Below are positions 19,580 to 64,000 of a DNA stretch of 64,000 nt, one piece after another. Every line of letters begins with the position of its first letter. The stretch's first letter is position 1. A program made the position numbers and the translations under genes. This DNA comes from an uncultured virus (IMG/VR IMGVR_UViG_3300018080_000169) (taxonomy: Duplodnaviria; Heunggongvirae; Uroviricota; Caudoviricetes), in IMG/VR virus record IMGVR_UViG_3300018080_000169; one strand, 5' to 3'. The notes under the pieces are model-generated. The model saw only the letters and a list, made by a program, of their open reading frames with translations. It did no database searches and was not told where the DNA came from.

Positions 19580-20210
19580 AATAAATAGGGAGAATTTTAC
19601 ATAATTTATACAGGGAGAAATAACCTTATTTAAGACAGGGGAAAAAGTATATTTAAGCGGGGGAAATTAATAAGAAAAAAAAAGCAAATTTAAGAGGGGG
19701 AATATTGTATTTTTTAATTTGTAATTAGAGACACAATGTCCTATAAACTGTCCTAAATTTCATGCTTTTTTAAAACAAATTTCTATGTGTATTTTTGTGG
19801 TAAAAAGTGGTAAAAAATGGGCTTTTATAATATGCTTATAACGTGGTAGTTACACACTGCATTTTTATATAAATCTCGAAGATAACAATTTATCTCATTT
19901 TTAAATCTATCTGATTTAGACCTCTTTTTTAACAAAAAATAATTTCTGAAAATCAATACTGGGTGGGCCACATAATCCCCCACTCAAATCCACTTTTTTT
20001 CAACCATTCAAATTTCTCATTTTTCTAAAGAAACGATAAACTTTAATCCCCCACTCCAACCTACTTCTCTTCTCCTCTCTCCACTTTCTTCCACAAGAGA
20101 ACAACTTTATTTTTCAAAAAATTATTAGTATTTTAAAACTTAAAAAAAGGGGGGTAATTTTTATTTAAGTGGGGGGTATAAAAAGGGGAGGTTTTCAGGC
20201 CTCCCGATTT
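19580..20210. other. non-coding region with G/C tracts and 10-bp-phased GTGG/CCAC repeats
   Basis: No ORF >60 aa; GTGG at 19797/19807 (ATGG 19817); CCAC at 19980/19990 and 20051/20081/20091. Confidence 0.55.
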
Positions 20211-21811
20211 CAATTATGAATAACAAAAAAGAAATTATATTAATTCAACAAACTTCCATTTTTCTCTCCAGTTTTTCCAGAACAAAGTATATGTCCAGCC
20301 ATCATCAAAACCAGCATATCTTTCTCTAATTTTTTGTTCTTTAACATTAACAAATTTGAATCATTTTCCTGTCCAGTGAAAATCTGATTTAAATCCGTCA
20401 ACCACTATGAAAGGGAATAAAGAAAACACTTTTCTTACTCTAAATTCATTAAGCATTATTCTTTGATGCTCATTGGATACATTTATTATTTGTTCTCCTT
20501 CCATATTATATTATACGTAAAATTTAAGAAAAAGTTTCAATTATTTGCCCCCACTTCAATAGGGAGAACTTATTTTATTTAAGTGGGGGAGAATTTAAAA
20601 ATTTTTCAACAATTCAAATATTTTATTAAATAAAAATAAGAATTTCTCATGGGGAGAGTCAAAAAATTTTTAATAAAATTAAAAAAATATTTAATCTTTT
20701 TTATTTGTTGTAGTTGATTTAGATTTAATGAGCAATCCACATAGCCAAGTAAGGCATACAGCTTGCCACCAAGATAGTTTAGCTGCGAGATATCCGCCAG
20801 CAACGACACCTGGCAGAGCTGCAGGGATTGCAACAGGCCAAAGCCAAAAAACCAATGTTCCAGCTATAATAGCAAAGAATGAAATCATTAATATAATAAG
20901 CACGACTGCACCTATTCCCATTGTTAATTTAGTAAGATTGTCCATAATTTTGTTTTTTGGTTTATAATAAAAGAGTGCGCACATTTCTCTGACACAAATT
21001 TAAGAAAAGTTTCTCAAAAAAACAAACCCCACTTAAATTAAGTGGGGGAGAGGTTTATTGTTTTAAATAAAAACTTATAAGTCATCAAAAAGTGAGAGCA
21101 TTGCAGATATAAACATAAACATTATTCCAACTGTTATTGGAATAAATACTATAATTGTATAAGGGGATTCAAAAGGCATTTTTAAAATAAATCCTAAAAG
21201 AAAACCTAATAATACTCCTGCTGCAACAAGGATTGCTCCACCTATAAAAATAAATTTTAATATTTTACATTTCATAGTTTCATTTATTTTTCCCACATTT
21301 CTTTTATTTTAATAACTGAGAAAGTTGGGAATTTTTCTACAACTAAATTTCCATCACTACATTTATAACTAACTTCATACATATCGTATGCGCAACTTCT
21401 GGATAAATCATTTACATTGCAATCTGCAGTATCGAATGTTGCTACTTCATACCCATGAACAGGTTTTTTATATTCTACTATTATTTTTTTAAGGTCTTCA
21501 AAACTCATAACTATTTGGTTTTGGTTGATAAAATTAATTGCATTTCTTTTCGAAAGAGATGAATTGGGGGTTTCTTGGGTCTTTTAATTCTTTTATAACC
21601 CACATCTTTCTTTCTTTTATATATTGATAGTTTCTCATTATATTTTTCAATCATAAACTGAATAAATGCCAGCATAAACACTTTATGAAGAGAAACTGTA
21701 TATCGAGTTTTTCGTCCTTTTACACGAAATGATATTTGGTCACCTGGTTCAAGTTCCACCATAATGGTGTTTCCATATTCATCGGGAAGAATTAATTCTC
21801 GTGTTATGCGT

Positions 21812-22015
21812 TTATTTAGTTTTGTTGCCATTATTTTCTAACCATTTATCACGTTTATTTCTTGCTTCATCTAGTGATGAGGCAACAGTGGAGAATAATT
21901 CTCCATTTGTATGCCTATAGTCATATTGGAAAAATGTTTTATTTTTATGCTCAAATTCTTCGTATTGTTCTTGGCCTGGTGCACAGGTAGAACAACCTTT
22001 TTTATCTGTTTTCAT
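21812..22015 (-). CDS. DUF3873-like protein
   Basis: GCSTC..G.E.YE.F...QYDYRHT.GELFSTV..SL.E.R.KRD.WL. Confidence 0.65.
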   Translation of the reverse strand: MKTDKKGCSTCAPGQEQYEEFEHKNKTFFQYDYRHTNGELFSTVASSLDEARNKRDKWLENNGNKTK

Positions 22016-24099: not shown

Positions 24100-24302
24100 G
24101 ATTTATCTTTCTTTTTTATAATTGGTGCATTTGGTCTTTTTGCACATTTAATTAATTTTGTAATTTTAACTATTTTACCAGATATATCAAAGATTTTATC
24201 CTTTACTTTTAAATCTTTTGCTTTAACCCAGCCTTTATCTGTTTTAACTAAATGATTATCTGACAACATTCCTTTTTCTAATTCAATAATTGTATTTTTC
24301 AT
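24096..24302 (-). CDS. small protein resembling the N-terminal part of a Hint (intein) domain
   Basis: LVKTDKGWVKAKDLKVKDKIF...G..VKI pattern; no Cys1/Ser1. Confidence 0.4.
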   Translation of the reverse strand: MKNTIIELEKGMLSDNHLVKTDKGWVKAKDLKVKDKIFDISGKIVKITKLIKCAKRPNAPIIKKKDKS

Positions 24303-24816
24303 GATATTTTATTTATATAACGAATAAATTTCTTAAAGTAATGAAATTTTTAATATTTTTTTAAAAAATTATCTAATTTCATAAATTGGATAAATAAGAT
24401 AATCGCCAGTATATTCTAGCTCCATTCCAATATAATGGTTCATATCTTTATATCTTGGGTCTCCATGCTGGATTTCATTTCCTTTTTTATCTTTATGCTG
24501 AGTTTCATCTCTGAATGTTTTAAATCTTTTATCATTATCTAAAACTATATCATTATCTGGTCTATGACTATACTGTGCACGCCAATGAATTTCATGTAAT
24601 GCTTCGGCTTGTGTATCACATTTTGCAATCAAATCCATTTTAATATCTTTACCAGTTTTGTCGATATTAATTTTAAAGACACCATATTTAATAAAGTTAT
24701 TTAAATCAACTTTTGTATCTTTTGGAAAATATTTCTCAACCAAGAATTTTTTTCTTGCTTCAGCAGTTTCATTATCTGTTAATTTCTTTTCTGGGAGATT
24801 CTCATCTCCTTCTCTT

Positions 24817-25449
24817 TTAATAATGTCTGTCATGTTTATAATATTTTTTATAGATTTCTTGCAATTCTTTTCTCGCTCTCATAATTAAAACCTTAACTGT
24901 GTTTAAAGGTTTATTAAGCTCGAAAGCAATTTCTTCATATGCATATTCTTTAAAATATCTAAGTTCAATAACTTGTTTAAACTCTTCTTTTGTAAGTTTA
25001 TCAATAAACATATGAATTTCTTCCTTCATTTCTTTCTGGGCTATTTTTTCCATAGCTGTTTTGCAGCCACTTCTTAATTCATTTTTATATGTATCAAAAT
25101 CATTATTGTGTTTGTCTTCATCAATAGATTCGATAAATTCTTTTTGAGTTCTTAAATAATCTATGGCATGATTATGAGCAATTGTATACAGCCAAGTGCT
25201 AAATGCTTTTTTTCTAGGATTATATGTATTTAATTTTTCATATGCTTTCTGAAAAGTTTCAAATAATAAGTCCTCAGCAACCAGCTCGTCTTTTGTTAAT
25301 CTACGCATATTATTTAAAATGTTGTATTTATACTTATTTAACAATTTTGCAAATGCATTATTTTTTTCTCTTTCGTTTTTTGTTGTAAGTACAAATTCAA
25401 CTAAATTTTTATCTTCTTGAATATTAACAATTGATTTTGTTTCTAACAT
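24817..25449 (-). CDS. ECF-subfamily RNA polymerase sigma factor
   Basis: Region 2 AEDLLFETFQKAY...FSTWLYTIAHNHAIDYLR; region 4 YEEIAFELNKPLNTVKVLIMRARKEL. Confidence 0.92.
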   Translation of the reverse strand: MLETKSIVNIQEDKNLVEFVLTTKNEREKNNAFAKLLNKYKYNILNNMRRLTKDELVAEDLLFETFQKAYEKLNTYNPRKKAFSTWLYTIAHNHAIDYLRTQKEFIESIDEDKHNNDFDTYKNELRSGCKTAMEKIAQKEMKEEIHMFIDKLTKEEFKQVIELRYFKEYAYEEIAFELNKPLNTVKVLIMRARKELQEIYKKYYKHDRHY

Positions 25450-25700
25450 TTTGTTTTAAATTTTAAACTAATAATTAATTTTCAATAATAGCTAAGATAT
25501 CAGTATTCTCAGCTGTTTCTAATGCAGCATTAGCTAATACTATTACTAACATGTTATCAGAAAATTTGAATTTCTGTAACATCTGATTCCAGGAGAATAT
25601 TAAACTCATCTGGTCTAATTCTTCTATAGTTGTTAATTTTATTTTCATTGTCTTCATCTCCTTCGATGTATTTTATTTATTATTATAACGATTTATTTTT

Positions 25701-26795
25701 TTAAAGTAATGAGTTTTTTAATTTATTTATTATTTTTTCATCAAACTTTATTCTTAATAATTGAATATTATTTTTTTTACAAAAATCATTTTTTATTTTA
25801 TCTTTTTCAATTCTTAATTTTAATCCATCATCTCCACCAAAATAAGGAATAGATTTATAATGTTGTTCGCCATCATATTCAATACACATATTTTGTTTTG
25901 GCAAATAGAAATCAAATGGCAATTTATTTTTTAATTTACAACCAATAAATTTTTTTTGAGTTTCAAACATAATTCCTTTTTTTGTTAAAAAATCAAATAT
26001 CTTTTTTTCTCCTTTTGAACTTTTGCAATTTGGACACCCAACGCCAGATAAATGACTACCAGCACTTTGTTCAAATTCACCATGAATAGGACACATAATT
26101 TTTACCTTAGAATAGTGGTCCTTATAAACAACTAAAGAATAATCATATTTATTATCATGAGCCTCTTTTGCTCGTGAAATAAAAATATCAGTTGTAAGTT
26201 TTTGTGCTCCAGAACATTTTCTACAACCTTTTCCATTAAGATGACCATTTGGTTTTTGCTCCCAAATTCCATGTATAGGACATATAATTTTTATTTTGGT
26301 TCGATTATTAATATAATTTACCAAAGAATAGTCATATTTATTTCCATGAACTTTTTTGGCTTTTGCAATAAATTCTTCAGTATTACTTCTTAAACAATTT
26401 TTGAAAAAATTAATAAAACATTCTCTACATCCTTGACCAGATAAATGTTTTTCTGGCGATTGTATAAATACTCCATGTAAATTACAAACTATTTTAACTT
26501 TAATTTTGTTATTAATATAATTTACCAAAGAATAGTCATATTTATTTCCATGAATTTTTTGCGCTCTTTTAATAAATTCATTTGTAGATAATTTTTGAGT
26601 TAAACCTTTTTTTTCGTTTGCACAAATTGGACATCCACTTCCTCGTATGTGTGAATTGGCAGATTGCAAAAATTCTCCATGTATAAAACATATAATTTTT
26701 ACTTTAGAATGTGCATTTTTATAAACAGTCAAAGAATAATTATATTTGTTCCCATGAATTTTTTGTGCTCTTTCAATAAATTTTTTTGTTTTCAT
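25701..26795 (-). CDS. DUF723-repeat / Vsr-like (homing-type) endonuclease
   Basis: Four (H)(G/D)NKY(D/N)YS...C..HG...GC..C repeats; C-terminal FDFY...IEYDGEQH; likely true start at 26795 (MKTKKF). Confidence 0.75.
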   Translation of the reverse strand: MKTKKFIERAQKIHGNKYNYSLTVYKNAHSKVKIICFIHGEFLQSANSHIRGSGCPICANEKKGLTQKLSTNEFIKRAQKIHGNKYDYSLVNYINNKIKVKIVCNLHGVFIQSPEKHLSGQGCRECFINFFKNCLRSNTEEFIAKAKKVHGNKYDYSLVNYINNRTKIKIICPIHGIWEQKPNGHLNGKGCRKCSGAQKLTTDIFISRAKEAHDNKYDYSLVVYKDHYSKVKIMCPIHGEFEQSAGSHLSGVGCPNCKSSKGEKKIFDFLTKKGIMFETQKKFIGCKLKNKLPFDFYLPKQNMCIEYDGEQHYKSIPYFGGDDGLKLRIEKDKIKNDFCKKNNIQLLRIKFDEKIINKLKNSLL

Positions 26796-27087
26796 ATCAA
26801 TTTCTTTATTATAAATATAATAAAAAATATGAAAACTTCTAACTCCTATGTTAAATCCTTTTGGAGTTGGTTGTGGATAGTGTTTTGGATATGGATAATC
26901 AATTTCCCATGGGTCATCAGCGGGGAGAGTTTTTATTTCTCTCTCAGTTTCTTCATCAGGGAGAACTTCTATCTCAGGGATAACTTCTGTATCTTCATCC
27001 CCCACGCAAATCGGGAGAGTTCTCCAATTGTAGTATTCTTCAAAAGAAGAAAATTCTATATAAGAAATTCCGCTCTTTCTATATCCA

Positions 27088-28089
27088 TTATCTAATTTCA
27101 TATTTCTTTAATATTATTTCAGTTTTATCTTTTTTATTATTTAGAACATCAAAAAGTTCTACCAGTTCTTCATATTCTAAGAGGGAGAGCCTAGCTATTA
27201 CCTCTGAAATATTTTGTGTTGGCATTTGTATTGCATCCAGCAAAGTCTTCCATAATGTTGGAGACAATAAATAATGGAAAACTTCAGAATTATAATCATC
27301 AGCCTTTGCATAATAATATTTTAATTCTTTCTTAGTTAAGTCTTTAGGGATGGCCCTGCAGATTAAGTAATCGATGACACCTTTATTAACTTCATGCAAA
27401 AGAACTGGGAAATTTATTGCTTCACTTTTTATAGAAGCGTTGGGCCTATCTTGCTTCTCGAATTCAATTTTATTAATTCCTTGTGTTGTAAAATATACTA
27501 GTTCGTTCTTCCATAATTGGAAGCTAACGATTGCAATATATCTATCATAAAGGGACATTAATCTATCATCTAACTCATTAAGTTTGTCCCTAACTATATA
27601 ATGACAAGATTTCCAGACATGCATTGATGACCCATGAACTAATCCATTTAATATAATTCGCTTCTGAATTTCTCGCTCTACGTATTTTATTCTATCTGGT
27701 GCAGGTTCTTCTATGTCTTCTTGCTGAGCATCGAAATCAATGTCTTCAATACCCGATTTTAATTTTGCCTGCAGGACCAAATGCTCAGGGACATCATAGA
27801 TTTCTTTAATGGTATTTATAGCTAATCGTTCAAGCTGAGGCTTTAACCTTTTTTCAATCCTTGTTGTTATCACATATGCATTTTGAAATAAATTCAAGCA
27901 GCGTTTAAGCAAGCCGTCTTCTCCTAATTTATATTCATCTGGAAGTTTGTTCTTGAACAGTTCTTTGCATCTCGTGAATTCTTGTTGACCATATGATTGT
28001 CCATTCTTGGCATACAATTCGTTCTGAGCTAAACCAAAGGTACCATTATTGAGATGATTTATGATTGATATGTGTGGATGATATGGCAT
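27088..28089 (-). CDS. conserved-looking large-phage hypothetical protein
   Basis: 333 aa; KRIILNGLVHG and FPVLLHEVNKG motifs. Confidence 0.55.
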   Translation of the reverse strand: MPYHPHISIINHLNNGTFGLAQNELYAKNGQSYGQQEFTRCKELFKNKLPDEYKLGEDGLLKRCLNLFQNAYVITTRIEKRLKPQLERLAINTIKEIYDVPEHLVLQAKLKSGIEDIDFDAQQEDIEEPAPDRIKYVEREIQKRIILNGLVHGSSMHVWKSCHYIVRDKLNELDDRLMSLYDRYIAIVSFQLWKNELVYFTTQGINKIEFEKQDRPNASIKSEAINFPVLLHEVNKGVIDYLICRAIPKDLTKKELKYYYAKADDYNSEVFHYLLSPTLWKTLLDAIQMPTQNISEVIARLSLLEYEELVELFDVLNNKKDKTEIILKKYEIR

Positions 28090-28535
28090 TTTTATCTTAT
28101 TTTGAGTAGTCTCGCTACTTATATTTGGATTTATTTAACACTTATTTTATTATTTCAATTAAATTTAATTCTATAGCCTTATCTATTGCTATTGTATTAA
28201 TCGGAAATTCATATTTCGCATTGATTCTATCAGAGAAAATCTCATATACTTGTCCTTTACCAAAATATGTGTTCCTAATTTTTTTAATTATATAATTTCC
28301 TTTCTTCATTTTTTTGCAACCAGGTATTTTAGTTGAAGTATCATCATAAAGCAACTTGATTTTTTCATTTGCTTTTAATTTTGGAGTTTGATAAATCTTA
28401 TTATCGCCTCTTAATTCTGATATTTCGATTCCATTTAATATCATTTAACAAAATTAATTATTATTTTTTTTATTTACAAGTTTTTGCCCCCACTTAAATT
28501 TTCCTGGTCCTGCAGATTTAAGTGGGGGAGAGTTT

Positions 28536-29279
28536 TTATGCTTCTACTTTTTCTTTTTTCTTTTCTTCTTTAAAGACTTTTGGGAACATCCTTTTAACTT
28601 CACCCAATGTTAATAACTCAAATTCAGAGAATTTTTGCTCCAACAAGTGATTTCGCACAATATTATCATCAAAATTTTCTATAAGCTCGTCTTTCTCTTT
28701 TTTATTTTCTTTCTTATTATAATATTTCATGTCGTCTTTATCGACATCTTTAAGAGATTCTGGATAATAATACTTTACATACTTTCGTGCAGTTTCTGGA
28801 ATAAGTGTGGATACTTTACCATAAATTCTTCTCATAAAACAATATTTGTTTGTAATGGTGTCGATTATTGTTACACCATCATTGTTATCTCCAGCTGTAA
28901 AATTTTCTCTCATGTAAGGTTCCTCTTCATTTAAGAAATGGAATCTTTCGTATCCTTTTCCACGTGGGAAGTCATCATCAGTAACAAGAGCCATTAAAAA
29001 AGTAACAGATGCTGTGAACATATCAATTGTTCTCATTTGATAATTTAATTTTTTTCCAAACAAGTGGCTATACTCACTTTTATTTCCTGTATTAAATTTA
29101 AGAACTTTAAGTGCGTTGTACAATGCACTCATACCGTATAACCATTGATGATGGAATGCAAGCACTGTATACTTACCTCGTCCAAACATTTTAATTCCAC
29201 GTTTTTTTTCTTCACCTGACAACTCTAATGTGTCAACTGGATTTTTTGTTCTTATAAATACTTGATGTCTTTGTCCCAT
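28536..29279 (-). CDS. hypothetical protein
   Basis: 247 aa ORF followed by an inverted-repeat hairpin. Confidence 0.6.
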   Translation of the reverse strand: MGQRHQVFIRTKNPVDTLELSGEEKKRGIKMFGRGKYTVLAFHHQWLYGMSALYNALKVLKFNTGNKSEYSHLFGKKLNYQMRTIDMFTASVTFLMALVTDDDFPRGKGYERFHFLNEEEPYMRENFTAGDNNDGVTIIDTITNKYCFMRRIYGKVSTLIPETARKYVKYYYPESLKDVDKDDMKYYNKKENKKEKDELIENFDDNIVRNHLLEQKFSEFELLTLGEVKRMFPKVFKEEKKKEKVEA

Positions 29280-30392
29280 AATTATATTATTTTAATGGTT
29301 GATAATTCTAATCCTCTTTCAGATACTATAACAGATTTTGTGAAAGTTTCTGATTTCTCTGGAGCCAATCCATATGTATTAGCTGCATGCTTTAACGCTT
29401 CTGCTATGTTTTTAGCAATTTCTTTAATTTCGTTGTCATCAGAGATTGAATCCTCAAATTCAAGTTCTACGACAAATTTTACTTTTTTACTCATTTTGTT
29501 TTCTCCTTTTTTTGTTAATAAAAGCCCCCACTTAAACAGGGAGAGCTTGGTTAATAATTAAGTTTTTTTCCATATTCTTCATCGGTGATATTGCCTTCAA
29601 TAAGATTTATTTTGGTACGCAAGATTTCAGTTAGTCTGTCCACTTCATCACCATCTAATGGTTCATCAGAGCCGTCTTTATAAAACTCAATGATTTTATA
29701 AAGTTCATCTGGGAAACCGAAGTCTTCGGCTTCTGATATAAGACCAGTTGTTTGAATTTTTTCTAATTCATTCATAAAATCATTATAAAATGTTGGGGCA
29801 TCAAAAGCTATTGAAAAACAAGTGTTTTCATTATCATCTACTCCATCTTCATCAGTTTTCCATATAGACATTATGTAATTATCAGGATTTTCAATAACCC
29901 AAAAACATTCTGTTTCTTTTTTATCAGGTTTTCCTAAAAGTTCCGATAACTCATTTATGGTAGCTCCGAATTCAATACAGCTTCTGCCCATAATTTCTTT
30001 TTTTGCGTCTTTTAGTCTTTTGTACTTCATTTTGTTTTCTCCTTTTTTTAAGTTTTTGAGAGGGAGAATTGTTTATTCCCCCTATATAATCGCAAGTTTT
30101 TTAATTTCTAAATCTCCGCTGGTATAATCTGTCCCGTATTCTATTTGTTCAACTTTACCAATCATTACACCACCAGTTGATTGCACTACAACTCCATATT
30201 TTTTTGATAATATGGTAAGTTCTTTAATAAAATTATTATAATTATTTCTTATAATATTTTCATCTGCTTTTTTAATTTTCATTTTAATTTCTCCTTTTTA
30301 TTGTTATAACGAATTGATTTTTTAAAGTAACGAAGTTCACGAAGTAATAATGAAAAAGTTTATCCCCCACTCAATTTAAGTGGGGGAGAGTT

Positions 30393-31250
30393 TTATTTTT
30401 TATTTTCAATGAATTCAGTTATTTCTTTAGCTTGTTCAAAGAGTTCGCCTTCTATTGCTATTTCTTTTGCTTTTTCCAATACATATATTGGCATATCTTC
30501 ACAAATGTAATTTCTTTCAACAGCTAATTCAATCAATGTTTTTATAAAATCATTTTCTAATTCATCTTCATCAGCCTCACACAATCTATCACCAAGATAA
30601 TAGTCTTCACCACCCTGTATGTCCAAAGCTAATTTATATGCTTCTGGGCTTCCACCTTTTGGGACATTTTCTTCAATTACGTTTCCACCTTCAATTACAT
30701 ATTCAGCTAAATTGTATCCAAAATCTTCATCAGCAAATCTTATTTCAAATCTTAATTTCGGAAACTTTTGTCCCAATAAAAGCATTATTACTGTTGGATG
30801 AGACCATGCTGTTTGAAATGTTAGCCAATCATCACCAAAGTTTGCATCATAAGCGCCCCACTTTGTCCCCCAATGTTTAATCCTCCAGTCATACCAGTTA
30901 TCTGCCCCAAATTCTTTTAAATATTTATCAGATAATTCTTGGGTTAAATTTCTTGAAAAACCAAAATCTTCTTTTGCCTTTTCTTCTTTTGTTAGTTCTA
31001 TTCCAGCTTCTTTTTTTTCTGCAATTTGGCGTGTTATTAAAGCAACTTCTTTCTCCTGCTTTTCATATTCTTCTTCAGATATGATTTTCATTGGTGAACG
31101 AGTGCCTCGTAGTTCTTCTGGCATAGGCAATATATTATCAAAATCAAATATATCTTCACCTTCATAATTGGTTTTAATAAGTTTAAAGAACTTATCAATT
31201 TCTTTTTGAGTTCCGTCAATTTTGACTTCTGTTGTTACATGATTTGGCAT
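30393..31250 (-). CDS. DUF1281/YubB ferredoxin-like-domain protein
   Basis: MPN, FDF..I.PMP, WYDWR..HWGTKW, F.TAWS.P. Confidence 0.7.
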   Translation of the reverse strand: MPNHVTTEVKIDGTQKEIDKFFKLIKTNYEGEDIFDFDNILPMPEELRGTRSPMKIISEEEYEKQEKEVALITRQIAEKKEAGIELTKEEKAKEDFGFSRNLTQELSDKYLKEFGADNWYDWRIKHWGTKWGAYDANFGDDWLTFQTAWSHPTVIMLLLGQKFPKLRFEIRFADEDFGYNLAEYVIEGGNVIEENVPKGGSPEAYKLALDIQGGEDYYLGDRLCEADEDELENDFIKTLIELAVERNYICEDMPIYVLEKAKEIAIEGELFEQAKEITEFIENKK

Positions 31251-45303: not shown

Positions 45304-45309
45304 ATATAT

Positions 45310-47273: not shown

Positions 47274-47306
47274 ATTCGTTTTTTGTCTTTATAACGAATT
47301 TGGAAT

Positions 47307-50952: not shown

Positions 50953-51428
50953 GTTCGCTCCTTTTTTTTATTATAACGAATTAATATTTTAAAGTAACGA
51001 AGTTTGCGAAGTAATATTAAAAGTTTATAGTTTTTGTTCTTCCTAACAAAGTAAATTTACTTTTATCTCCAAGATATGTTAAACGAATATTTATTGCCAT
51101 TCTTACAGCATCTTCCAAATTGTTAGCTACAAAATAAACTTTGCTTAAACTTCCAATCGTAAATCTAACATAAAATTTTAGACGTTCAATATCCAAACTA
51201 TCATCTTTGTATTTTTCAATCCTATATGATATTTCTTCCCTTTTCAAATAATCTTTAACAGTTCCGTTAAAATCTAATGTTTTTGTCCTAAAATTCCACC
51301 AATGAATTATTAAATTAGAATTTAAAATTCTTTTAATTTCATCTTTATTATGCTTTTCCATTGTTTGCTCCTTTTTTTGTTTGTATAACGAATTTGTTTT
51401 TTAAAGCAATGAAAAGGGAGAATCCCTC

Positions 51429-52571: not shown

Positions 52572-52623
52572 AATGTTTGTGTTTTTTATTATATAACGAA
52601 TTTAATTTTTAAAGTAATGATAT

Positions 52624-53115
52624 TTATTCTTTTATGAAATAGCCATAAACACATCTTGTCCCCCCACGTGAACAATCGTAAGTATCATGTATAACTCCGT
52701 CTATCATAGCAGTTAGATGTTTAGATGTTCTTACAATTAATCTGCCATTTGGCAGTTCATCTGCCCTTAAATGTACTTTACAACCCTGTCCTATAAACAT
52801 TGTAGGTACCCATTTCCACCCTATACTCTTCAAATATTTTTCGTAAGTTACTCTAAAAACTCCATTCCTGGAATTAGATGTTTTACGTTTTCTTTTTCCT
52901 GTTCTTTCTCTTTCTGCTAATAAATTTAAAGTATTATAAACTTCTTTATAATCTTTTCCTGTGGTTATTGCTATTGAACGAGTTACACAATCCCTTACTT
53001 TTTCGGCTTTAAAATATTCACTTCTGCCACCGTCATTATATTGAAATTTTTGTGCAAAGGAATAATGCTCTCCATTTTTATAGCCAATTTCTGACCAAAT
53101 TATTTTTTCTTCCAT
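52624..53115 (-). CDS. hypothetical protein, possible papain-like Cys-His-Asp fold
   Basis: DCVTRSIA...HLTAMIDGVIHDT. Confidence 0.4.
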   Translation of the reverse strand: MEEKIIWSEIGYKNGEHYSFAQKFQYNDGGRSEYFKAEKVRDCVTRSIAITTGKDYKEVYNTLNLLAERERTGKRKRKTSNSRNGVFRVTYEKYLKSIGWKWVPTMFIGQGCKVHLRADELPNGRLIVRTSKHLTAMIDGVIHDTYDCSRGGTRCVYGYFIKE

Positions 53116-56100
53116 TTGTTTTGTTTTTATTATATAACGAATTTAATTTTTAAAGTAATGAAATTTTAACGTTGTCCAAAGCGTCCTTTATCTATCCAAA
53201 TTATCAATTCATTTTCGCTTGGTCTTAACATAACTGAACATTTTTTTGATAAAAGATAATTAACTATCTCATTCCTTTTTTTTGTGGAATATTCAAATTC
53301 CTCTAAATGTTCATATTTTATTCCTTCAATTTTGCTGTGCCAATATCCTATTTTTATTTTTTTCATTTGTTTTTATTTATATAACGAATTTAATTTTAAA
53401 AGTAATGAAATTCTACTTTAACTACAAAAAAAATATATTTAAAGTAACAATTAAAATGAAAAAAGAGGAGGACTTTCACCTCCTCCAAAAACAAACAAAC
53501 AGGCAATTTGTCCCAGAACGGGACTGAAAAGTTCTTTTATATCTTTAATCTGAACAACGCTTTTCTGTTTTCAGCATATCAGCTTCATAATTTTGAAGTA
53601 TTAACGAAATTTCATCTATTGTGTCTTCATCCAATTCTTCATACGCAACTGAAAATTCATCAACTTCTGTTTCGTGAACATACGTAACAACATCAACATC
53701 ATTATTATTAAATCTTTCAATCAGGGAGAAATTGTCTTTTCCTATTGTAGCATAAACAGGAGAGTTTTCTGATTCCAGTTCACCCATAGAAATACTACCC
53801 CATTCTTCAATAATTCTTTTTATTTCTGAAATTTTTTGTTCCTTAATATCTACTTCATGCCCAATTTCAACAACTTCTATCATTCCTTCATCATCAATAT
53901 TGCCATTAATTAATGCTTCTAAAATGTCTTTTGTGGTAGGAGATTTTTCTCCAACATACTTAATTTTAAATTCTTTTTTCATAGCTTTTGTTTTTATTTA
54001 TTATAACGAATTATTATTTTAAAGTAATGAATTTATGCTCCGCAACTTTCTAAAATATCATCAACTTCTTCCTGGTCATTCGGGGAGAGTTTTTTGTAAT
54101 AGCTTTGAAATTTATCTTTCAACGCTAAACATTCATCATCTTTACCCTCTCTTAAAAGTTCTTCAGCATCTAAAAACATTTGTGCAACTTCATCAGCTTC
54201 CAAAACTATATTTACATCAGGGTAAATTTTTTTTACAGTATCAATTAAAACTTTTCTGTCCTTTTCATCAGGACTAAAAAGTTCTAAACGTCTGCCACCT
54301 GGGCCCCAAATGTCTATTGAAAGGTCTGCAAAGTGGTCAAAAAACATTCTTTTGTATTCTTTATAAAAAAATATAGCCGTAACATTTGAGCCAACTTGAA
54401 TAACACATTTGTATTTGCCTAATTTAACTTCCCCAAAAACATCATTTTGGGTAACTTTTTCAATTAATCTTTTTAAATATCCCATGATTTTTGTTTTTGT
54501 TTATATAACGAATTTAATTTTTAAAGTAATGAAATTTATGTCAATAATGTAAATTATTTTAATTTCTCCACCAACGATAATATTGCGTTAACAGTTTTTT
54601 CATTTTCAAATAACTCTTTATCTACTTCTATTACATAATCAATATTAAATGTCTTTTTTTTCTTCCCTGTCTTCAGATTCATGTCCAATATTAATAAGTT
54701 ATGCACCATGTTTTACCATGCACACATAAACACTATACTTTGACCATGAACAACAAAAAACTGTCCATCCCGAAAATTCAGGAAATTCAATTTCTGTTAA
54801 ATCTTCTGTAGTTTTATTCTTCCTGATATTTGTTGTGTTTTTATTTGCTTCCAATACGATACAAGGTATATCATTTTTATTACTACCAGTAGCCGAAATT
54901 TTACCCCATTTATTTTTTGTGTCAATACAAAAAGCTATTACATTATCTGATTTTTGATAAGTAATACAATTGTTTACAGAAATAGCACCTTGATAAGTAA
55001 CACGGTGCATAACAACAGGTATATTTAATACCTGTGTTTCAGTGTTATTCAAGTTTTCTACTTTTTTCATCTTTATTTGTATTTTGATTGTTTATACTAT
55101 TTAATCAGGCACTAAACATATCTGTTGGATTGTGTTTGTAAGTTTTATGATTTCAATTTTTTTCATTGTATCTATATAATGAATAAAAATTATGAAATAA
55201 TGAATTAATATGTAACTTATAGCTCATCAAGCACATTAATAATTTCCTGTGAATAATCATCAATTAATTCATCAGTCATTAATTCATACCTACTATAAGG
55301 TAATTCTTTTTCAAATTTTTCAACTGCATTTTTAAATTTTTTTACATCATCAGTTGAGAAAGTTCTACTCATTGTATCAGATGAATGTTTGTCTATTGCT
55401 GTAATTGTTAGTAAATCCATAGCTTTTTTTATTTATATACCGAATTAAAATTTTAAAGTAATAAAAATCCCCCCACTCAAATTAAGGGGGAGAGTTCTTT
55501 TAATCTTCGTCTGGCAGTTCAGCAATTTCTTTTTCGCCTTCTTCGTGTTCTATTGCCCTGTCATTCCAGGTAATTATTTCATATTTTTTGCCTTCATATT
55601 CAAAAACTTCTGCATCGCCTGCATTTGAGTTTGTTTGACTTTCATCAATAGGATAATCATATAAAAATTCTCCATTTTCTAAAACGTCTTGAATGTTTGG
55701 TTTCATAGTGTTTTTTTGTTTATATAACGAATAAAAATTTTGAAGTAATGAATTATTACTCAAATTCAAAACTTATTTCAGTAACATACATATCAGCATC
55801 ATCAAAACCTGGATTTATCATTTTAAGATAATAAATATCAAAATATCCGAATGTATCTTCTTTTTTTGAATTAAACATGAAATTATAATCACAAGGTTTA
55901 TTATCAAAATTTGTGCAATCTTCTCCTTTAATTTCTTCATTAAAAATTTTGCTCAACTCTTGATTTAAGGTTTTTGATGAAAATCTTTTGCCAACAAGTT
56001 CTTCTAATTTGGCTACTATTGTTTTTTGAATATCTGTCATAATTCTTTTGTTTATATAACGAATTAAAAATTTAAAGTAATGAAATTAAACTCTGCCTCT

Positions 56101-59100
56101 TTTTTCAGCACAAGTATAACACATATCTTCATTTTCTATAAGCCCTGAAGTTTTGCCACATTTAACACAAAATCTGTCATTGTTAATATTATCAAACCAA
56201 ATAGTCAGGGAGTCTTTTATTTCATCATCTTTGACAAAAATATCAACAATTACACCGAGTTCATCTTTATCATTTTTTATATCAACAATATCGGTATCAC
56301 TAACTTTTTCATTTAAAAAATCTTTGATAATATCAACAATTTCTATTGCCCCGTCTTCGCCAACTATAAGGTCAGCAACTTCTTTTTCATCTAGAAACAA
56401 TGTATATGTTTCTTTTTCGTTGCCGTCATAAGTAATTACATTTTTTGCCATAGTGTTTTTATTTATATAACGAATAAAATTTTTAAAGTAATGAAATTGT
56501 TTATTAATTTTAGTAGCTTGTTTCAGCAGTTACTTCCCACCACCCACTATAACTAATGCCTTCTTCTCCTTTTTCAATATCTGTATCGTGCATAAAAACA
56601 TTGTCGCACAATTCTCCAGATGTATAACCTTCAACCCTCATTTCATTTATTCTTTTTTCAGCACTTTCCTCAAGTGCCTCTTTGTGATGGTCTAAAATTT
56701 CTCCTTCTTCATCTCGCCACCACCTATAAGTAATTATGATTTTCTTTTCCATAATATTTATATTTTTTAGTTAATTAAAATCATTTCCATTTGGTCTTTA
56801 ATAATATCAATAACCACATCAACCTCTTTAATACCGCTTATATGAAAATTCCATTTACCACTATATCTGTTTACACCTATAATTTTTTCATCTGCTAAAG
56901 AGGGATTATCAAATTTTGTAAAAACTGAATAACAATAATTGTTATCTTCATCAACTTTAATTTTTAAATTTCCTGCAATAGTTCTTAAATTATAAGGATA
57001 ACGATTATCAACTTTTTCTGCTCCGAGTTCAGTAATCATAGCAGTAACTTTTTTTACAAATTCTTTGCTTCTTTTTGCTGTTATTGTTTTTCTCATATCG
57101 TTTTTTTGTTTATATAACGAATTTATTTTTTAAAGTAATGAAGTTTATTTTTTAATTCCATGACTTTCAGGATAATTTTCAAATTCGCCCATATTGTCCC
57201 ATTCATCTAATAGTGTTTCAGGATGTTGCCAATCACAAAATTCAAATAATACTTCAGCTAATATTTCAGGGATTCCATTTACTCCCAATTCCTCAAAATG
57301 TTCTTTAGCCAAATTTACAAAATCCTGATAAGTATAACCTACGCCCTCTGTATAAAATTCTGCGTCATCTAATTCAGGGATATAACATACTTCATTTGTT
57401 TTTTCGCAAAATGCTTCAAAGTTTTTGTAAATATATCCCTGTTGAAAAAATTCTTTTTCAATTTTGCCGTTTTCGTGGATTTTACCAACTGTATCTAAAT
57501 ATGCCATAATGTTTTTATTTATATAACGAATTATTCTTTTAAAGTAATGAGTTTATATAAGTTTAATTTTTTGCATTTGGTACAACGCCAACCCTCTTTT
57601 CCTAAAAACCTTACACTTAAAAGTGCTTCCGCTTTACAACACGGACTTATGTTTCGTTTTTTATCCATTATATAATATAACGAATTAAAAGGGAGAAGTA
57701 ATGAATTATCCAAAAACAACTTCGCCCATAACTGCCAACTGAAACCAAATATCTGCATCGTTTGCATCATCTTCTTCTTTCAAAATATTGGCAAATATAT
57801 ACTGATAATCTTTTAATAAAATTTCTTCAGCTTTTTTAATGCTTTCAAGGTTTATTTCGCCCAATTTTTCATTTTCATTTTCAATATCAAATATCTCAAT
57901 AGTTTTACCTTTTTGAATAGCTGTAAAAAATGCTTCACTTAAACAGGGTTTTTCTTCTGTTTTATGTTCAGATATAAGTTTAGTATTTTTTTCATCTATC
58001 AAATACCAATAATTTGAACCGCCCTCTAAAGCAGTTATAATTAAATTTTCTCGTGCTTTATCATTTAATTTCATAGTGGTTGTTTTTATTTATATAACGA
58101 ATATTATTTTTAAAGTAATGAAAAAAAGGATACAAAAAATTGTATCCTTTTCAAACCAGGCTCCCCTTTATTACAGGGGAGAATTGAACTTAAACAAGCG
58201 AAATAGAAACAGGACTATATTGGTCAAGATAGTATCAACTACTAATATTTTTCTGTATTTTATTTTATACATTCTTACTACCCTTCGTATTGCTTTTTTT
58301 ATTGCCACTTCGTAAGCAATAAAAACCAGGACTAAAGTTGTTACAATCATTGGTACGATAGAATCTATTATATAAAACATATTTATTTTTCTCCTATTTT
58401 AAAATTAATTTTTTACTTTTCTTTTGTGGGACAGGCCCATTAAGCGTTCAGTATTTTGATTATGCCTGAATTTTCTTACGGCTTTAATCATTTCTTTGTC
58501 TTCTTTAGTGTGCTTTTTTCTTCTCATGACTTTTAATAAATTATTATTTTTAATCCCATATTATCAGTACGTATATTCATTAATGCTTTTCCAACTTTAT
58601 TGGCTAATTCTATTTCATCATCAGTTAAATACTCCAGAAAATCACCAATTCCTGTTAGAAACTCATCAAAACTTTCAACTACAATACCTGCTGTTGTATC
58701 TCCAAACATCCCTCGTCCTGAATAATCTTTTCTTAATTCAACATCTATTGACATTGATAGAGCTTCTTCAAAAGCTTGTGCATATTCCAATTTCATTATA
58801 CTTTTCCTCTACGTTTTTTAGTTTTTGTACTTTTTGCTAAAGCAATTTGTTCTGTAAAATCGGCAGGATTTTTACCTTCTGCTTTTAATTTTCTTGTAAG
58901 TTTTCTGCCTGGAAAATTTTTTCTTTTCATAGTTTGTTTAAATTTTAAGTTTAACAATTATTTATTATTATAACGAATTATTTTTTTAAAGTAATGAAAT
59001 TTACCAGTCAAAAAAACCTTTAGATTTTAACTCAACTTTTGACTTAATCCATTTTAACACTTCATCAGCATAATAACAAGTAGATAAGTCTTCCAAATAA

Positions 59101-60209
59101 TCCCTCAATTCTCTTTCTGCGTTTTCGCTATTTATATCAACCTCTAACCTATCCCATTCTTTAGCGTTTTTCTGACTTGTCTTTCTGCTTGAACCTTCCG
59201 AAAAGTCCCATTCTTTAGCTATTACAATAGCTTTTGTCGGAGTAGTCTTTGCGGTTATTACTCCGCCTTTGCAATATTCACCAATTTTAAAAGTTTTTTC
59301 TGCCATAGTGTTTTTATTTATATAACGAATTGTTTTTTTAAAGTAATGAATTATATATTTTCAAACGGGTCCCAAGAAAATATTTGATAATCTAACTGAA
59401 GTCTTTTCCTTACTTTCTTCTTTTTCTTACGTGGGTAATTTTTAGACCTTTGCCATTCTTCACGAATTTCTTTTAACTTTTCTTCATTGTTGCCCCTCAT
59501 TGTGCTTTCAAACATCAATGCCATTCCATATAACATACCTAACATTTTGCTCATGCTTTTTCCTCCAACGCCTTTTTAATTTGGTGATAAATTTGAAATT
59601 GCATATCATATTGAATTTGAGCATAATTTTCTTCACTCCCAGAAAATCCAACTTCTTTTAAAATCTCCTTTGTCTTTCTTAAAGATATATCCCTTAATTT
59701 TTTAAGAAGTTTATCATCATATTCAGATATTTTTTGTCCCATTTGCTTTTATTTATATAACGAATTAAAAGGGAGAAGTAATGAAAAATCCCCCACTTAA
59801 TTTAAGCGGGGGAGAGATTTTATTCTAGCTCCTCAACAATTTGCTTAATATCTATAATAAAACTTTCAAAATCTTCTAAACTTTCTCTTATTTTAAAGTT
59901 TTCCCTGTATTCTTTATTTAAACGGTGAATTTCAATTTCTTCATCAACATCAAAATTATCTACATAAAACTGTAGTTGTTCTTTAACTGGTTTATTTTTA
60001 TTAATAGTAATAATCATATCTACACCGCCGTCTGTCCATTTTTCAAGCTCTATTATATCATCTGAAAAGTGAACGCCAAAATGTTTGTCTAATATTTGTT
60101 TATTTTTTTCTGTCATAATTAACTCCTTTTTTTATATAACGAATTAAAAAATTGAAGTAATGAAAAATAAAAACCCCCCCCCACTTAATTTAAGCGGGGG
60201 AGAGTTTTT

Positions 60210-60548
60210 TTAGACGTATTCGCCATTTTTTACTTTATCCATAACTTGCTTCAGGGTATAGTCGCCAGGGTCAAAATACATATCTCTTTCAATTCCAAGT
60301 CCAAAAGGGAGTTTTAAACTTTCAAGCTCATCAAGCGAAACAGTGCCACATTCGGCAAATGTAGGGTCCCCCAAATTTGCAAAGCACATAAATATCCTAT
60401 CTTCCTCATTGTATTCATAAAGGTACCAAGTAGAATTTCCAACGGGTGTAAAATATTTTGCAATTACCTTTATTTCTTCTGCTGTCATTTCAGAAGTATC
60501 GCCCTGCTTTTTAAAAGCATCCAGAATTTTTTTTGTAAGTAGTTTCAT
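60210..60548 (-). CDS. DUF2958-like protein
   Basis: K.FTP....TWY..E...F....LG....E.G.VSL.EL.....P.GL.IERD. Confidence 0.7.
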   Translation of the reverse strand: MKLLTKKILDAFKKQGDTSEMTAEEIKVIAKYFTPVGNSTWYLYEYNEEDRIFMCFANLGDPTFAECGTVSLDELESLKLPFGLGIERDMYFDPGDYTLKQVMDKVKNGEYV

Positions 60549-62285
60549 AGTCGTTTGTTTTTGTTTATATAACGAAATTAAATTTTAAAGTAATGAATGA
60601 ATATTCAGCTAAAATTTCTTTTTCAATTTCTTTTATTATTGCTGTTCTCTGTGCTTCTTTTCTTTCTTCGTATATTTCTTCAGCGTGTCTATAAAAAAGA
60701 AAGTTTATATCTTCTTCAAACTCTTTTATAATTTTGTTATATTTAAGCTCTTTAAATATTAGTGTAAATCTTTTGCGTGTTCTTCGCCCCTCTAATATTT
60801 CTCCGTCCCAAATTATAACTTTAATTTCAAAATCATTTTTGTTAAAAGTTAGTGATACATCTAAATTATGTGAATATGTTGTCCAAGAATCAATTTTTTT
60901 CAATTTCTTCTTCATTTCTTCTTTTGTGTCAGGATAAACAAAAAAATTTTTTGCCTCATATTCCTGAAAGTCTAAATTGTGCTTTTTACAAAAATAAAAA
61001 AATTCAGCACCATGTCTAAAATTTCCTGTTCGTATATAACCCAAAATTTTTGCCTTTTTTGAAAGTGTTTTTATTGTTGTCATTTGTTTTTATTTATATA
61101 ACGAATTAAAAGGGAGAAGTAATGAATTAAAAGTAAAATTCATCAATTTTTATATCAAATCCTTGTAAACCAAAAATAAGTTCTACAAAATTATTATATG
61201 TATTTTCTCCAATATATCCTTCAGTTACAATTTTTCCGTCTCGTATTTCAATGTGTCCAAGCACCTGTCCTTTTTTTCTAATTGACATCAAATGTTGGTC
61301 TATTGTTAAATCTAAATTTTTATAGTCCATGATATTTTACTTTTATTTATATAACGAATAGAAATTATGAAGTAATGAAATTATACTCAAACCCTTTTGT
61401 TTTGTCAAACATAGCTTTAAAAATATCTTTAGGTTTTTCATTTTGTAAACAAATATTCATAGCGTCATCTGAAGTATGGTCTAATTTTTCGCCTTCTTTA
61501 ATAACTTCAATTATTGGACGGGGAGAAATTAGTGTAGGGGGTTTTCCTACTTCGTGCAAACCAAAAATTATTTCAACATCATCTTTTATATAGCAAATAT
61601 CCAAATCTCCCATTGAAGAAAAAAAATCTGTATAATGCTTTTCTTCTGAATATTCCCACTCTTTTGTTTTCCTGTTAAATCTTTTCCTGTATGGTTTAAA
61701 TCCTTTTTGTTTTATGTATTTTGTGAAATTCATTTGATTATATAACGAATAAAAAAGGAGAAGTAATGAAAATCAATTATGAAAAATCTTTATTCATCCA
61801 ATATTCATCATCACCTGGGTCTTGACATTCATATCTTTCAGCCCTTTCATCTAACCACGCCTGACTAGCGGGAGAGATACGAGTTGTATTGTTTCTTTTG
61901 TTCGGGGTTACTGTATTCCAATATTTATCTTTACAAACTGTTTTGCCCTTTGTTCTGCAAAATGCTTGTTGATAGTGTTCTTTTATAAACTTTGTCCCGC
62001 AACTAGGACAAATACATTCTTCACCAACTTTTTTGGACTTATTTAATTTGTATCGTTCTTTTAGTTTCATTTAACAATATACATTATTAAAGTTAGATAT
62101 ATTTATATATATACCACTATCAATATTGTTTTTCTTCCTTATCCTGCCAAGTTCTTTATCTTTTTGTTCATCAACATCAAAAGGATTAAGATATTCTGAA
62201 GGCAAATAGTGCCACCCTTCTTTATCAAAATATTTTACTGTATATAATGATTTTTTCATATTGTTTATTTTATTTATATAACGAA

Positions 62286-62426
62286 TTATTTTTTAAAAGT
62301 AATGATTTTATATATATTTAATTTTTTACATTTAGCACAACGCCTCGCTTCTTTACCTAAATACCTGGCACTCAAAACCTCTTCAGCTTCGCAACATGGA
62401 CTTAATTTTTTATTTTCTTTGTTCAT
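62286..62426 (-). CDS. 46-aa Cys-rich protein not in the ORF track; paralog of 57531-57668
   Basis: SPCC.AE..LS.R.LGKE..RC.KCKKLN.YK in both. Confidence 0.65.
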   Translation of the reverse strand: MNKENKKLSPCCEAEEVLSARYLGKEARRCAKCKKLNIYKIITFKK

Positions 62427-64000
62427 GCTGTTTGTTTTATTTATATAACGAATTATTTTTTTGAAGTAACAAGCTCTTTAAAATTATTGTTGCCATTTAT
62501 CCAACAATATAAATTTCGGCTAACTGCAAAATATTTGTCAAATACGCCCTCAATTATATTTCTTGCCCTGCTTATCTTATCACACATTTCAGAATAAGGG
62601 AGATTTTCATTTCTTATTTTGTCTTCTTCTTCTCTTTCTAAATCCCTTTGTATTCGTTCTAACCTGTCTAAATTACTTCCATATCTTTTGTAATAAGTAG
62701 CATATTTTTTGATTGCTTTTTCTGTTTTGTTTTCTATTCTGCACATACGATTTTTATTTATATAACGAATAAAAACTTTGAAGTAACAAAATTTTTGTCT
62801 ATTTCTTTTTTTCTTCAAAAAACTCTAAAGGTGTAACTACCTTAGCTCTATTACCAATAATTTCTTGTGCCGTTTCATATTGTAATTCAGAAAACAAATT
62901 TCTAACTTCGTTTTCTGTGTATAGCTTTAATAATTTTAAAAAATATTTTTTCATAAGTGTTTGTTTTGTTTATATAACGAATATAAATTATGAAGTAATG
63001 ATTATATTATTGCTAAAAATTCTCTATCTGTAAAATAATCCAGAATAGGTGTTGTATTTATTACTTCTAGTATTATGGCAATGTCTATTTTATTAGAATT
63101 TGCTTTTTTAGTTTCCTTAGCAACTTGTTTTGCAGTTTCTAAAGTTCCTATATGGTCTTGCAACCAATATCCATTAATTTTATTTTGCCTTTTTGATGAT
63201 ATGTTTATTAAAGAAAATTTGCTCATTTGTTTTTGTTTATATAACGAATAAAAACTGAGAAGTAATGAAGTTTCTAAAAGGATAACGAAAAACTGTCTAT
63301 TCTTTAGCAAAGGGAAGTGAATAGTATTTGACAAGTCTATCAAAATCTTTATTAATAAACATATCATAAACAGTTGTATCATCAAAATCTTTTAATAATC
63401 CTGAATTGTACCCCACTCTTTTATATCCGTTTGAAGTTAATACATCATAGACATATTTGAACGCTATTGTAGTAAATCTTTTTATTCTAAATTTTAGTTT
63501 ATCATCATCCGTTGTTGGTACATCAATAACCCAACTTAAAAGAATATCATCCCAAGCATCATACCCATTATCTCTACCACTAAAATAAGCATCATCTGGT
63601 ATATCATTATCTTTCATAAATTTAGGTATATCTAAAGGATTAACATCAATAATACTAACGCTTTTAATAATCTTCTTTGTAATTGGAGTTTGCCTATCAA
63701 GTTTGCCTATTGCGTCATTTAATGCCTTTATAATAAGAGTTTTCATCTTTGCTTGTTTATTTATATAACGAATAAAAACTGAGAAGTAATGAAAATTAAT
63801 TTAAAATTTTTTCTCTATCTGAATCTAAACCAGTATAAAATACTTGTATTTCGCTATCAATTTCATCAATAGTATGTTCATAAACAACTATTTGTCCATC
63901 ATTATTTTTAACGTCTGTTATTGCATCTTCATCTTTTTTTACCATTTCAATAGCTTTTTCTAAATTACTGGCAATACCAATTACTCTATGAGAAGCCCAA

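Follow-up and report, generated by a model that had tools for sequence, protein, structure and literature searches.

The DNA analysed here is a stretch of 64,000 nucleotides (hereafter the window) from an uncultured virus, IMG/VR record IMGVR_UViG_3300018080_000169, and the element in question is the hexamer GGGAGA, which occurs 61 times on the plus strand of a single gene block at 19588..62603, equivalent to TCTCCC in the sense of ~85 minus-strand genes. The window is AT-rich, phage-like DNA with 28% GC. From 19.3 kb to its end it holds ~85 small open reading frames (ORFs), every one on the minus strand and most without a known family, and only three paralogous pairs were found among them. 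The left edge of the block is sharp and lies at the last co-oriented gene (19284-19577), while the right limit falls beyond the 64-kb window. No near DNA match to the window was found among 50,697 phage records, and no near relatives were found in public phage and virus collections by DNA, promoter pattern or protein. The protein matches are distant only and comprise a GP88-family protein and an extracytoplasmic function (ECF)-type sigma factor. Among sequencing runs, the DNA was listed in one DNA run, as contigs, and in no RNA run. The 16-mer TCTCCCCCACTTAAAT is present in 24 IMG/VR contigs as single matches that are consistent with chance and come without hairpins and without enrichment.

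Most block genes are preceded by one of ~56-64 near-identical promoter copies on the minus strand (24285..63780) with the layout CATTAC-N15-(T)TCGTTATA(TAAAT), for which we tallied 57 copies of CATTAC, 56 of the strict pattern and 64 of the -10 box alone. Matches to a sigma-70-type consensus were not enriched (99 vs. 105.4 ± 10.5), and this first promoter class is probably served by a dedicated sigma or polymerase specificity. Most of the genes begin 10-20 nucleotides past the -10 box, after an A-rich leader, and only 22 of the 85 carry a Shine-Dalgarno-like motif. A second promoter class, TTGAAAC-N16-CGTATAA, which we take to resemble ECF-sigma promoters, has six copies (2124, 7717, 10453, 20538 and 23163 on the minus strand and 18623 on the plus strand). 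It would probably be served by the ECF-type sigma encoded at 24817..25449 (minus strand), whose gene lies within the block and behind a first-class promoter, an arrangement that suggests a two-step cascade. The promoter motifs of AR9 and of crAss-like virion RNA polymerases differ from the promoters of this phage. The minus-strand genes at 91-10398 have the second promoter type, and no hexamer is found in their sense.

An exact count over the whole window gave 62 copies of GGGAGA on the plus strand, 61 at 19588-62603 and one at 13763, and three copies of TCTCCC (6499, 43509 and 61606). This agrees with an earlier note on this DNA, in which about 60 GGGAGA from 19.6 kb onward, about one before it and about three TCTCCC had been counted by hand. 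Within the block, TCTCCC is distributed 61:2 between sense and antisense. The left 19.5 kb contains one copy of the motif per strand, and none of the 39 ORFs located to the left of 19 kb contains TCTCCC in its own sense, so that the regional bias claimed in the note holds as well; its label "class II region" has no basis in the sequence. The density of GGGAGA is ~1.4 per kb and flat across the 43 kb of the block. Since G is scarce on the plus strand in this region (GC 0.24-0.32, with a GC skew as low as -0.29), few copies are expected by chance, namely 0.76, 1.19 and 3.87 in 19001-64000 for Markov chains of order 0, 1 and 2, in keeping with the one to a few copies estimated previously from composition; the expectations from order-3 and order-4 chains (17.7 and 50.4) already include GGGAGA itself. 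The excess over base composition is ~80-fold, and dinucleotide-preserving shuffles with both strands pooled yielded 13.06 ± 3.62 copies (largest value in 100 shuffles, 21) compared with 65 observed.

Among the hexamers with at least 12 copies in mRNA orientation, TCTCCC ranks second by observed over expected, and the top-ranking CTCCCC overlaps it. Its eighteen single-mismatch variants are present in 0-8 copies each, except for TCCCCC (19 copies, within a hairpin arm), compared with 61 copies of TCTCCC, and all six letters of the motif matter. The inverse orientation is depleted: GGGAGA occurs only twice in the sense of the block genes, where 9.1 ± 2.7 copies are expected. GGGAG is also below expectation (7 vs. 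17.4 ± 3.4), and GGAGA is near it (56 vs. 59.6).

The 62 plus-strand sites are divided between minus-strand coding sequence (29), intergenic DNA (28) and plus-strand ORFs from a crude caller (5, one of them holding 13763 and the other four, within the block, being probably spurious). All 29 coding sites belong to the 85 block genes, with none in the 39 other ORFs, and all three reading frames are used (14, 8 and 7 sites). When synonymous codons were shuffled within genes, which preserves the protein and the codon usage of the gene, motif-derived codons included, only 2.80 ± 1.50 sites were obtained (maximum 9 in 500 shuffles), and permutation of the codon order gave 0.98 ± 1.03. The enrichment thus persists through the codon-preserving shuffles proposed in the note. 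Synonymous opportunities to write the motif are used in 29 of 88 cases in the block and in 0 of 30 outside. Codons that are rare in the block are frequently found inside the motif, including CTC (14 of 44), TCC (7 of 30) and CCC (8 of 28); CTC accounts for 44 of 913 Leu codons, and in the xxT-Leu-Pro contexts of the block CTC-CC is used in 14 of 28. That synonymous CTC and TCC codons create the motif had been claimed before, with coordinates and codon contexts that were all correct, the one site given at 34294 beginning at 34293. Three coding sites at 26923..27018 (plus strand) encode TLP, VLP and TLP in the N-terminal acidic repeat of an HNH-like gene (25701-27101), and a further site at 27183..27188 (plus strand) encodes LSL in frame 1.

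Relatives of the block were obtained as 15 short contigs from one metagenome scan with the promoter pattern, and they are 67-87% identical to parts of it. The contigs were oriented by their -10 boxes, with L013 represented by its AT-rich 400 nucleotides alone. In the resulting 25,361 nucleotides TCTCCC occurs 23 times in sense and four times in antisense, for which the order-0 expectations are 0.32 and 2.40, respectively. In the alignable segments (69-87% identity), six of nine window sites are kept and three sites are present in the relatives only, while a neutral hexamer at ~74% identity would survive in a fraction of ~0.16 of cases. The LSL site at 27183 is kept in L014 at 74% overall nucleotide identity, and near it this contig has two further sites absent from the window, one of them created by amino-acid changes; its stretch homologous to 26923-27018 has three sites of its own. 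The motif is thus both conserved and turning over in the relatives, which argues for a signal selected for its presence and density, plus some fixed places. Tandem duplication as a source of the sites is ruled out by the presence of only three paralogous pairs in the block.

The strand-polar occurrence of GGGAGA is therefore confirmed, and the hexamer is under positive selection as a cis signal of the co-oriented gene block, with which it shares its limits and polarity. The synonymous shuffles, the rare codons, the inverse depletion and the relatives all agree with the selected, oriented and region-bound signal inside coding sequence that had been put forward in the note. Literature searches did not find this TCTCCC/GGGAGA motif described.

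As the motif is confined to co-oriented minus-strand genes, their mRNA reads Y-UCUCCC-Y. The consensus in mRNA orientation is A(-3)-n-Y(-1)-TCTCCC-Y(+6), followed by n-T-T in the non-hairpin sites, and on the plus strand the base next to GGGAGA is a purine in 55 of 62 cases on the 5' side and in 51 of 62 on the 3' side. The sites are concentrated at the ends of genes: 23 of the 61 begin 0-40 nucleotides downstream of a stop codon, counted from its first base, where 4.8 would be expected, with 17 at +6..+13, and 22 of the 29 coding sites are located in the second half of the gene. Gene starts are avoided, with three sites in the first 100 nucleotides of genes (11.6 expected) and three within ±30 nucleotides of the start (7.1 expected). 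Only about one quarter of the block genes have a site after the stop codon, and half of the sites are coding.

Fourteen sites extend into the 5' arm of a terminator hairpin and cover its first three C; 15 such hairpins were identified by a sense-strand pattern. The high coordinates of these sites are 20592, 21051, 28531, 30389, 31951, 34910, 36773, 39356, 40911, 43595, 49455, 49829, 59815 and 60203, which places the motif on the hairpin family that it had been said to cap. At 28526..28531 (plus strand), for example, the sense strand reads an A-rich segment, Y, TCT-CCCCCACTTAAAT..AGTGGGGG and a T-run. Terminator-like hairpins are enriched in 27000-46999 (18 vs. 6.0 ± 2.8), and the hairpin family scores on the minus strand. 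A GGG is located within +9..+50 of 30 of the 61 sites (11.5 expected), mostly in the terminator family, so the idea that every site has a hairpin partner is true in part.

Other sites are arranged around promoters. At 57691..57696 (plus strand) the motif lies in a promoter spacer, CATTAC-T-TCTCCC-TTTTAATTCGTTATA, and the same layout is present at 59771-59776 and 61112-61117, all three as previously noted. About eight sites separate a stop codon from the -35 box that follows, in the form TCTCCC-T3-7-CATTAC, as in TAA-AAT-TCTCCC-TTT-CATTAC at 45899..45904 (plus strand) and likewise at 46526, 49012 and 51416, and this arrangement recurs in the relatives L001, L011, L013 and L015. A position 25-100 nucleotides upstream of the next -10 box was found for 20 of 55 sites (~6 expected). 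Furthermore, four pairs of sites are spaced in tandem by 24-25 nucleotides, where 0.17 are expected (P = 5e-5, post hoc). In the pair at 51416..51446 (plus strand) the copies are 25 nucleotides apart and flank AAGAGGGA, which is able to pair with either copy (51416 or 51441) in alternative hairpins; the second is followed by a T-run. The other pairs are 19588/19613, 20562/20587 and 49824/49848. The 51416/51441 pair is kept in L013. This contig (1-9527) starts with ~190 nucleotides of phage-like AT-rich sequence containing both tandem sites and continues with 54% GC DNA, probably because it was assembled as a chimera or spans a mosaic junction.

Because the sites follow stop codons, stand at the foot of terminator hairpins and occupy the 3' halves of genes, our preferred, though tentative, reading of the motif is a transcript-linked gene-end or decay tag for the gene class of the block, to which we give somewhat less than an even chance. 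The sense-strand polarity of 61:2 in the block and the lack of the motif in the sense of the 39 outside ORFs argue for this reading. Recognition would occur as A-n-Y-UCUCCC-Y in the transcript, or in the non-template strand during transcription of the block, and a sequence-specific phage or host factor, either an endoribonuclease or an RNA-binding protein, would cut or bind at UCUCCC and thereby detach or mask the protective 3' hairpin. Any transcript ending at a tagged hairpin would carry the motif at its 3' end, and the fate of all block transcripts would be set by clearance or read-through at a temporal switch. A more far-reaching and rather doubtful proposal is that the ~60 positions act as a class-wide switch, by which one factor would silence or clear ~85 independently promoted genes at once, either through recognition of Y-UCUCCC-Y in the transcripts or through cutting or blocking of GGGAGA on the template strand. 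If true, it would be a type of temporal switch, encoded in cis, that has not been described in phages.

Three known systems share features with the motif or its surroundings. RegB of phage T4 acts on GGAG in early mRNAs, at sites located in the ribosome-binding sites at gene starts. Like these targets, UCUCCC is a short word in one phage mRNA class that would let one factor act class-wide; unlike them, it avoids gene starts and favors gene ends, and the ORF scans revealed no RegB-like gene. The yeast mitochondrial dodecamer, a signal for mRNA 3' ends, has one copy per gene and is absent from coding sequence. It is likewise an exact linear word just past the ORFs of a very AT-rich genome, whereas in the phage the word follows the stop codon in only about one quarter of the genes and lies within coding sequence at half of its sites. 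Finally, in the promoter-early stem-loop (PeSL) cassette of T4-type phages a conserved early promoter comes after a terminator hairpin. The hairpin and promoter cassettes of the block similarly recur among the many small genes of a plastic region, a likeness that covers the intergenic modules but not the free-standing or coding hexamers.

Several observations weigh against a transcript-linked tag. No site was found in 28 of 63 promoter-to-promoter units, close to the 31.6 ± 2.6 expected at random, and the rule of one tag per transcription unit is therefore rejected. The predicted unpaired probability of the sites is 0.39, compared with 0.49 for random hexamers. A plus-strand tRNA-Met unit embedded antisense in the block (45018-45305, with a promoter-like site near 45018, the tRNA at 45070-45148 and its own terminator) keeps GGGAGA on the plus strand. 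There the motif lies in the 5' arm of the plus-strand terminator behind the tRNA (45269..45300) and is not flipped, following the DNA polarity of the block and not the direction of transcription. Sites are also present downstream of the second-class promoter at 20538, which indicates that the signal follows the block and not strictly one promoter type. The inverse depletion and the local clustering are typical of polar signals that act on DNA, and a C-rich hexamer tag of this sort is not known to us from bacterial or phage mRNA, nor did literature searches bring one up. Scans of the window ORFs with Pfam, PHROGs and NCBIfam detected no RegB-like or other RNase for the block, in a partial genome in which most window ORFs have no family.

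The only nuclease candidate in the block is an HNH or homing-endonuclease-like gene at 25701..27101 (minus strand), with a paralogue at 47307-48206; the HNH proteins look like homing endonucleases, and no solved relative was found. As an RNA-binding reader, the protein of 164 amino acids with a KH_2 (uS3-like) domain encoded at 6849..7343 (minus strand) is a speculative candidate. Its gene is located outside the block, behind the TGAAAC-type promoter at 7717. The C-terminal half matches the uS3 KH domain (PDB chains with E ~1e-7; TIGR01009 below cut-off), and its AlphaFold model is poor, with a predicted local distance difference test score (pLDDT) of 57.7. It may represent a piece of a ribosomal protein encoded by the phage, or else a protein that binds RNA.

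The earlier suggestion that UCUCCC in the mRNA pairs with GGAGA ribosome-binding sites is not supported. Within +9..+60 of GGAGA we found six sites, with 6.4 expected, and the third C, which is kept, mismatches the usual A-GGAGA context (8 copies of TCTCCT vs. 61 of TCTCCC); moreover, the Shine-Dalgarno-like motif is limited to the 22 of 85 block genes mentioned above. Masking of Shine-Dalgarno sequences was rejected likewise, as the sites are not nearer to GGAGA than by chance.

A polar signal read at the DNA level fits the inverse depletion and the indifference to transcription units, and it fits less well the flat density, the abrupt edge, the link with stop codons and the lack of a mirrored polarity. 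One such signal, which we consider unlikely, is a Chi-like sequence. R-GGGAGA-R on the plus strand would be read as single-stranded DNA by a host AddAB/RecBCD-type helicase-nuclease entering from the upstream (right) end, and the enzyme would be switched from destruction to repair, sparing the part of the genome that is exposed first. The motif is G-rich, flanked by purines, polar, dense, present in all frames and independent of transcription units, and its orientation would suit an enzyme that enters upstream of inward-transcribed genes. The Chi-rich phages LLS of E. coli, with 20 of its 23 Chi sites in one orientation, and MD8 of P. aeruginosa, in which all 32 point the same way, show the same statistics; in MD8 the motif outnumbers every other octamer of the genome and is concentrated toward one end (PMC12315714). 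What they share with the present case is a short G-rich oligomer in tens of copies that is the most over-represented word of the genome, nearly confined to one orientation and unevenly placed. In those phages, however, the oligomer is the Chi sequence known from the host and thins out away from one end, whereas here the density is uniform over 43 kb, without a gradient toward an end, and stops abruptly at the gene-orientation boundary; the ends of the genome are not in the window. The sites of this phage also track stop codons and terminators, and placement just past stop codons is not predicted for Chi. In addition, 61 sites would be more than a probabilistic stop signal should need.

In a crude screen for a host Chi, read from tables, the ratio of R-GGGAGA-R to a reversed-pattern control was ~0.2-3.0 in 401 Bacteroidota genomes and at most ~2.4 in 251 genomes from the phylum of a Bacillota metagenome-assembled genome (MAG), without a strong excess in either, although the sampled phyla may not be those of the host. 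This result lowers the probability of a Chi-like function only a little. The block does resemble an anti-defence "leading" region, with ParB/KorB-like, DUF2958 and DUF6527 proteins. By eye, a gene of the relative L011 looks like an ArdC-type anti-restriction gene, which no scan confirmed. Should the motif serve to tame a nuclease, the Chi sequence of an uncultured host lineage could be read from it.

Programmed nicks are a distinctly unlikely alternative, in which a phage nickase would cut the plus strand, the template of the block, at GGGAGA and could thus block early transcription late in infection. All 14 copies of TACTRTGMC in phage tf are located on the top strand, the nicks of phiKMV-like phages are on the non-coding strand, and the nicks are repaired early and reappear late (PMC3517423); the BF23 paper gives no nick consensus. 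The interruptions of T5, phiKMV-like phages and tf share with the present motif an exact oligomer confined to one strand, in phiKMV-like phages also the non-coding one, and GGGAGA lies on the non-coding strand of every block gene. Depletion of inverse sites (2 vs. 9.1 ± 2.7) would be expected if these risked double-strand breaks, and two HNH-endonuclease-like genes are present in the block. The known cases nevertheless comprise 3-14 sites of 7-19 nucleotides that are not restricted to a single gene block, unlike the 61 sites of 6-8 nucleotides found here in one block. The 3' bias within genes is opposite to what an efficient block of transcription would need, and the HNH proteins are homing-endonuclease-like and lack a solved relative. 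Whether as a nick or as an RNA tag, the motif would represent a new way of switching off a gene class.

We regard as very unlikely a guide of the type of the FtsK-orienting polar sequences (KOPS) or SpoIIIE recognition sequences (SRS), in which a pump for double-stranded DNA would be loaded at the polypurine octamer, or be given its direction by it, while this part of the genome enters, segregates or is packaged. The length and purine content are like those of KOPS (GGGNAGGG), SRS (GAGAAGGG) and GAAGAAG of L. lactis, for which multiple copies are needed for an effect (PMC3384302). Polypurine, G-rich words of 7-8 nucleotides, strong skew and avoidance of the reverse, non-permissive orientation are common to KOPS, SRS and the present motif, and the occurrence of sites in clusters and pairs also fits. 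KOPS and SRS are chromosome-wide with a polarity switch at dif, in contrast to the single block of this phage, where no mirrored polarity, KOPS-type flip or switch point was seen within the 64-kb window. No FtsK/HerA-type gene was detected among the scanned window ORFs, and the link to stop codons and terminators would be left unexplained.

The sites could also form a duplex-binding array for a phage regulator or coating protein that silences or organizes the block, for example the ParB/Noc-like protein encoded at 34918-35721, a proposal in which we place very little confidence. A gene of the ParB/Spo0J/Noc family does lie within the block, three sites are in promoter spacers, ~8 are directly upstream of -35 boxes, and four direct pairs are spaced by 24-25 bp compared with 0.17 expected. 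A duplex binder, however, gives no reason for the 61:2 polarity or the inverse depletion, half of the sites are coding and far from promoters, and ParB-type sites are palindromic, a role that the palindromic hairpin family suits better. This family, CCCCCACTTAAAT..ATTTAAGTGGGGG, scores as terminators (examples at 39330-39354, 43570-43592 and 34867-34910), and it may double as sites for the ParB/Noc-like protein. Solitary half-sites of the palindrome, mostly on the same strand and outside genes, were observed at 13872, 15807, 19280, 19662, 19699 and 20174 (minus strand).

That the hexamer is a by-product of copied terminator-promoter cassettes and of peptide or codon habits, without selection, is suggested by 14 sites in one hairpin family, three in one promoter variant and some coding sites in a repeated E-V/T-L-P peptide, but this is largely refuted and scarcely credible given 29 coding sites in three frames vs. 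2.8 ± 1.5 after shuffling, 29 of 88 opportunities used vs. 0 of 30 outside, three paralogous pairs only, rare mismatch variants and a site gained in a relative via amino-acid change. Two further candidates were rejected. GGGAGA is the initial transcribed sequence of T7, but no conserved upstream 17-mer of a T7-type promoter precedes it. For a primase recognition site the geometry of a leftward fork fits, but 1-19.5 kb is without sites on either strand apart from the single copies given above.

The motif belongs to the strand-polar over-represented oligomers of phage genomes, among which its confinement to one block and its coupling to gene ends are unusual. Few cis signals shape an entire genome; polar oligomers, Chi, KOPS and nick motifs included, do so, and their link to phage lifestyle is recent. 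The present signal is unusually strong: its excess is ~80-fold, a third of the synonymous opportunities are taken, and changes of amino acid are tolerated where they create sites. Synonymous sites in arrays of phage "ORFans" can thus be under strong non-coding selection, which matters for recoding and annotation.

At the left edge of the block, 19578..20690 (minus strand) is a 1.1-kb segment without a long ORF that contains five motif sites, CCCCCACTTAAAT half-sites and G-rich repeats. C5/G5 repeats, purine-rich runs, small ORFs and the TGAAAC-N16-CGTATAA promoter at 20538 are also located there, and the segment may be an origin or another regulatory hub. Just left of the block, four consecutive paralogous plus-strand genes of ~88 amino acids (17314-19263) share 39-61% identity. 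A second tRNA gene at 48624-48696 (minus strand) overlaps with its 5' end the hairpin-arm-like AAGTGGGGG.

With respect to the host, the DUF3873 protein encoded at 21812-22015 is 52-63% identical to proteins from Bacteroidetes MAGs, with some Bacillota matches, and points weakly to a Bacteroidota host. Together with the few Shine-Dalgarno motifs and the A-rich leaders it hints at a Bacteroidota-like host. The ECF sigma was ambiguous in this regard and TnpB yielded nothing.

In the left part of the window (1002-3462, 8336-8770 and 9257-11968), functions of the RNA-repair and DNA-modification type are encoded, including HAD_SAK_2, a metallophosphatase, a pyrimidine-dimer glycosylase and three methyltransferase-like ORFs, one of them MT-A70. 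A serine resolvase and a TnpB with a Cas12f-like TNB domain, an IS607-like arrangement, are located at 4224-5920 on the plus strand, opposite to the minus-strand gene run that surrounds them. Within the block, a Pol X or pol beta-like enzyme is split and permuted at 32706-34172 (minus strand): the palm/thumb ORF (33636-34172) lies upstream of the 8-kDa/fingers ORF (32706-33149), and two small ORFs are located between them.

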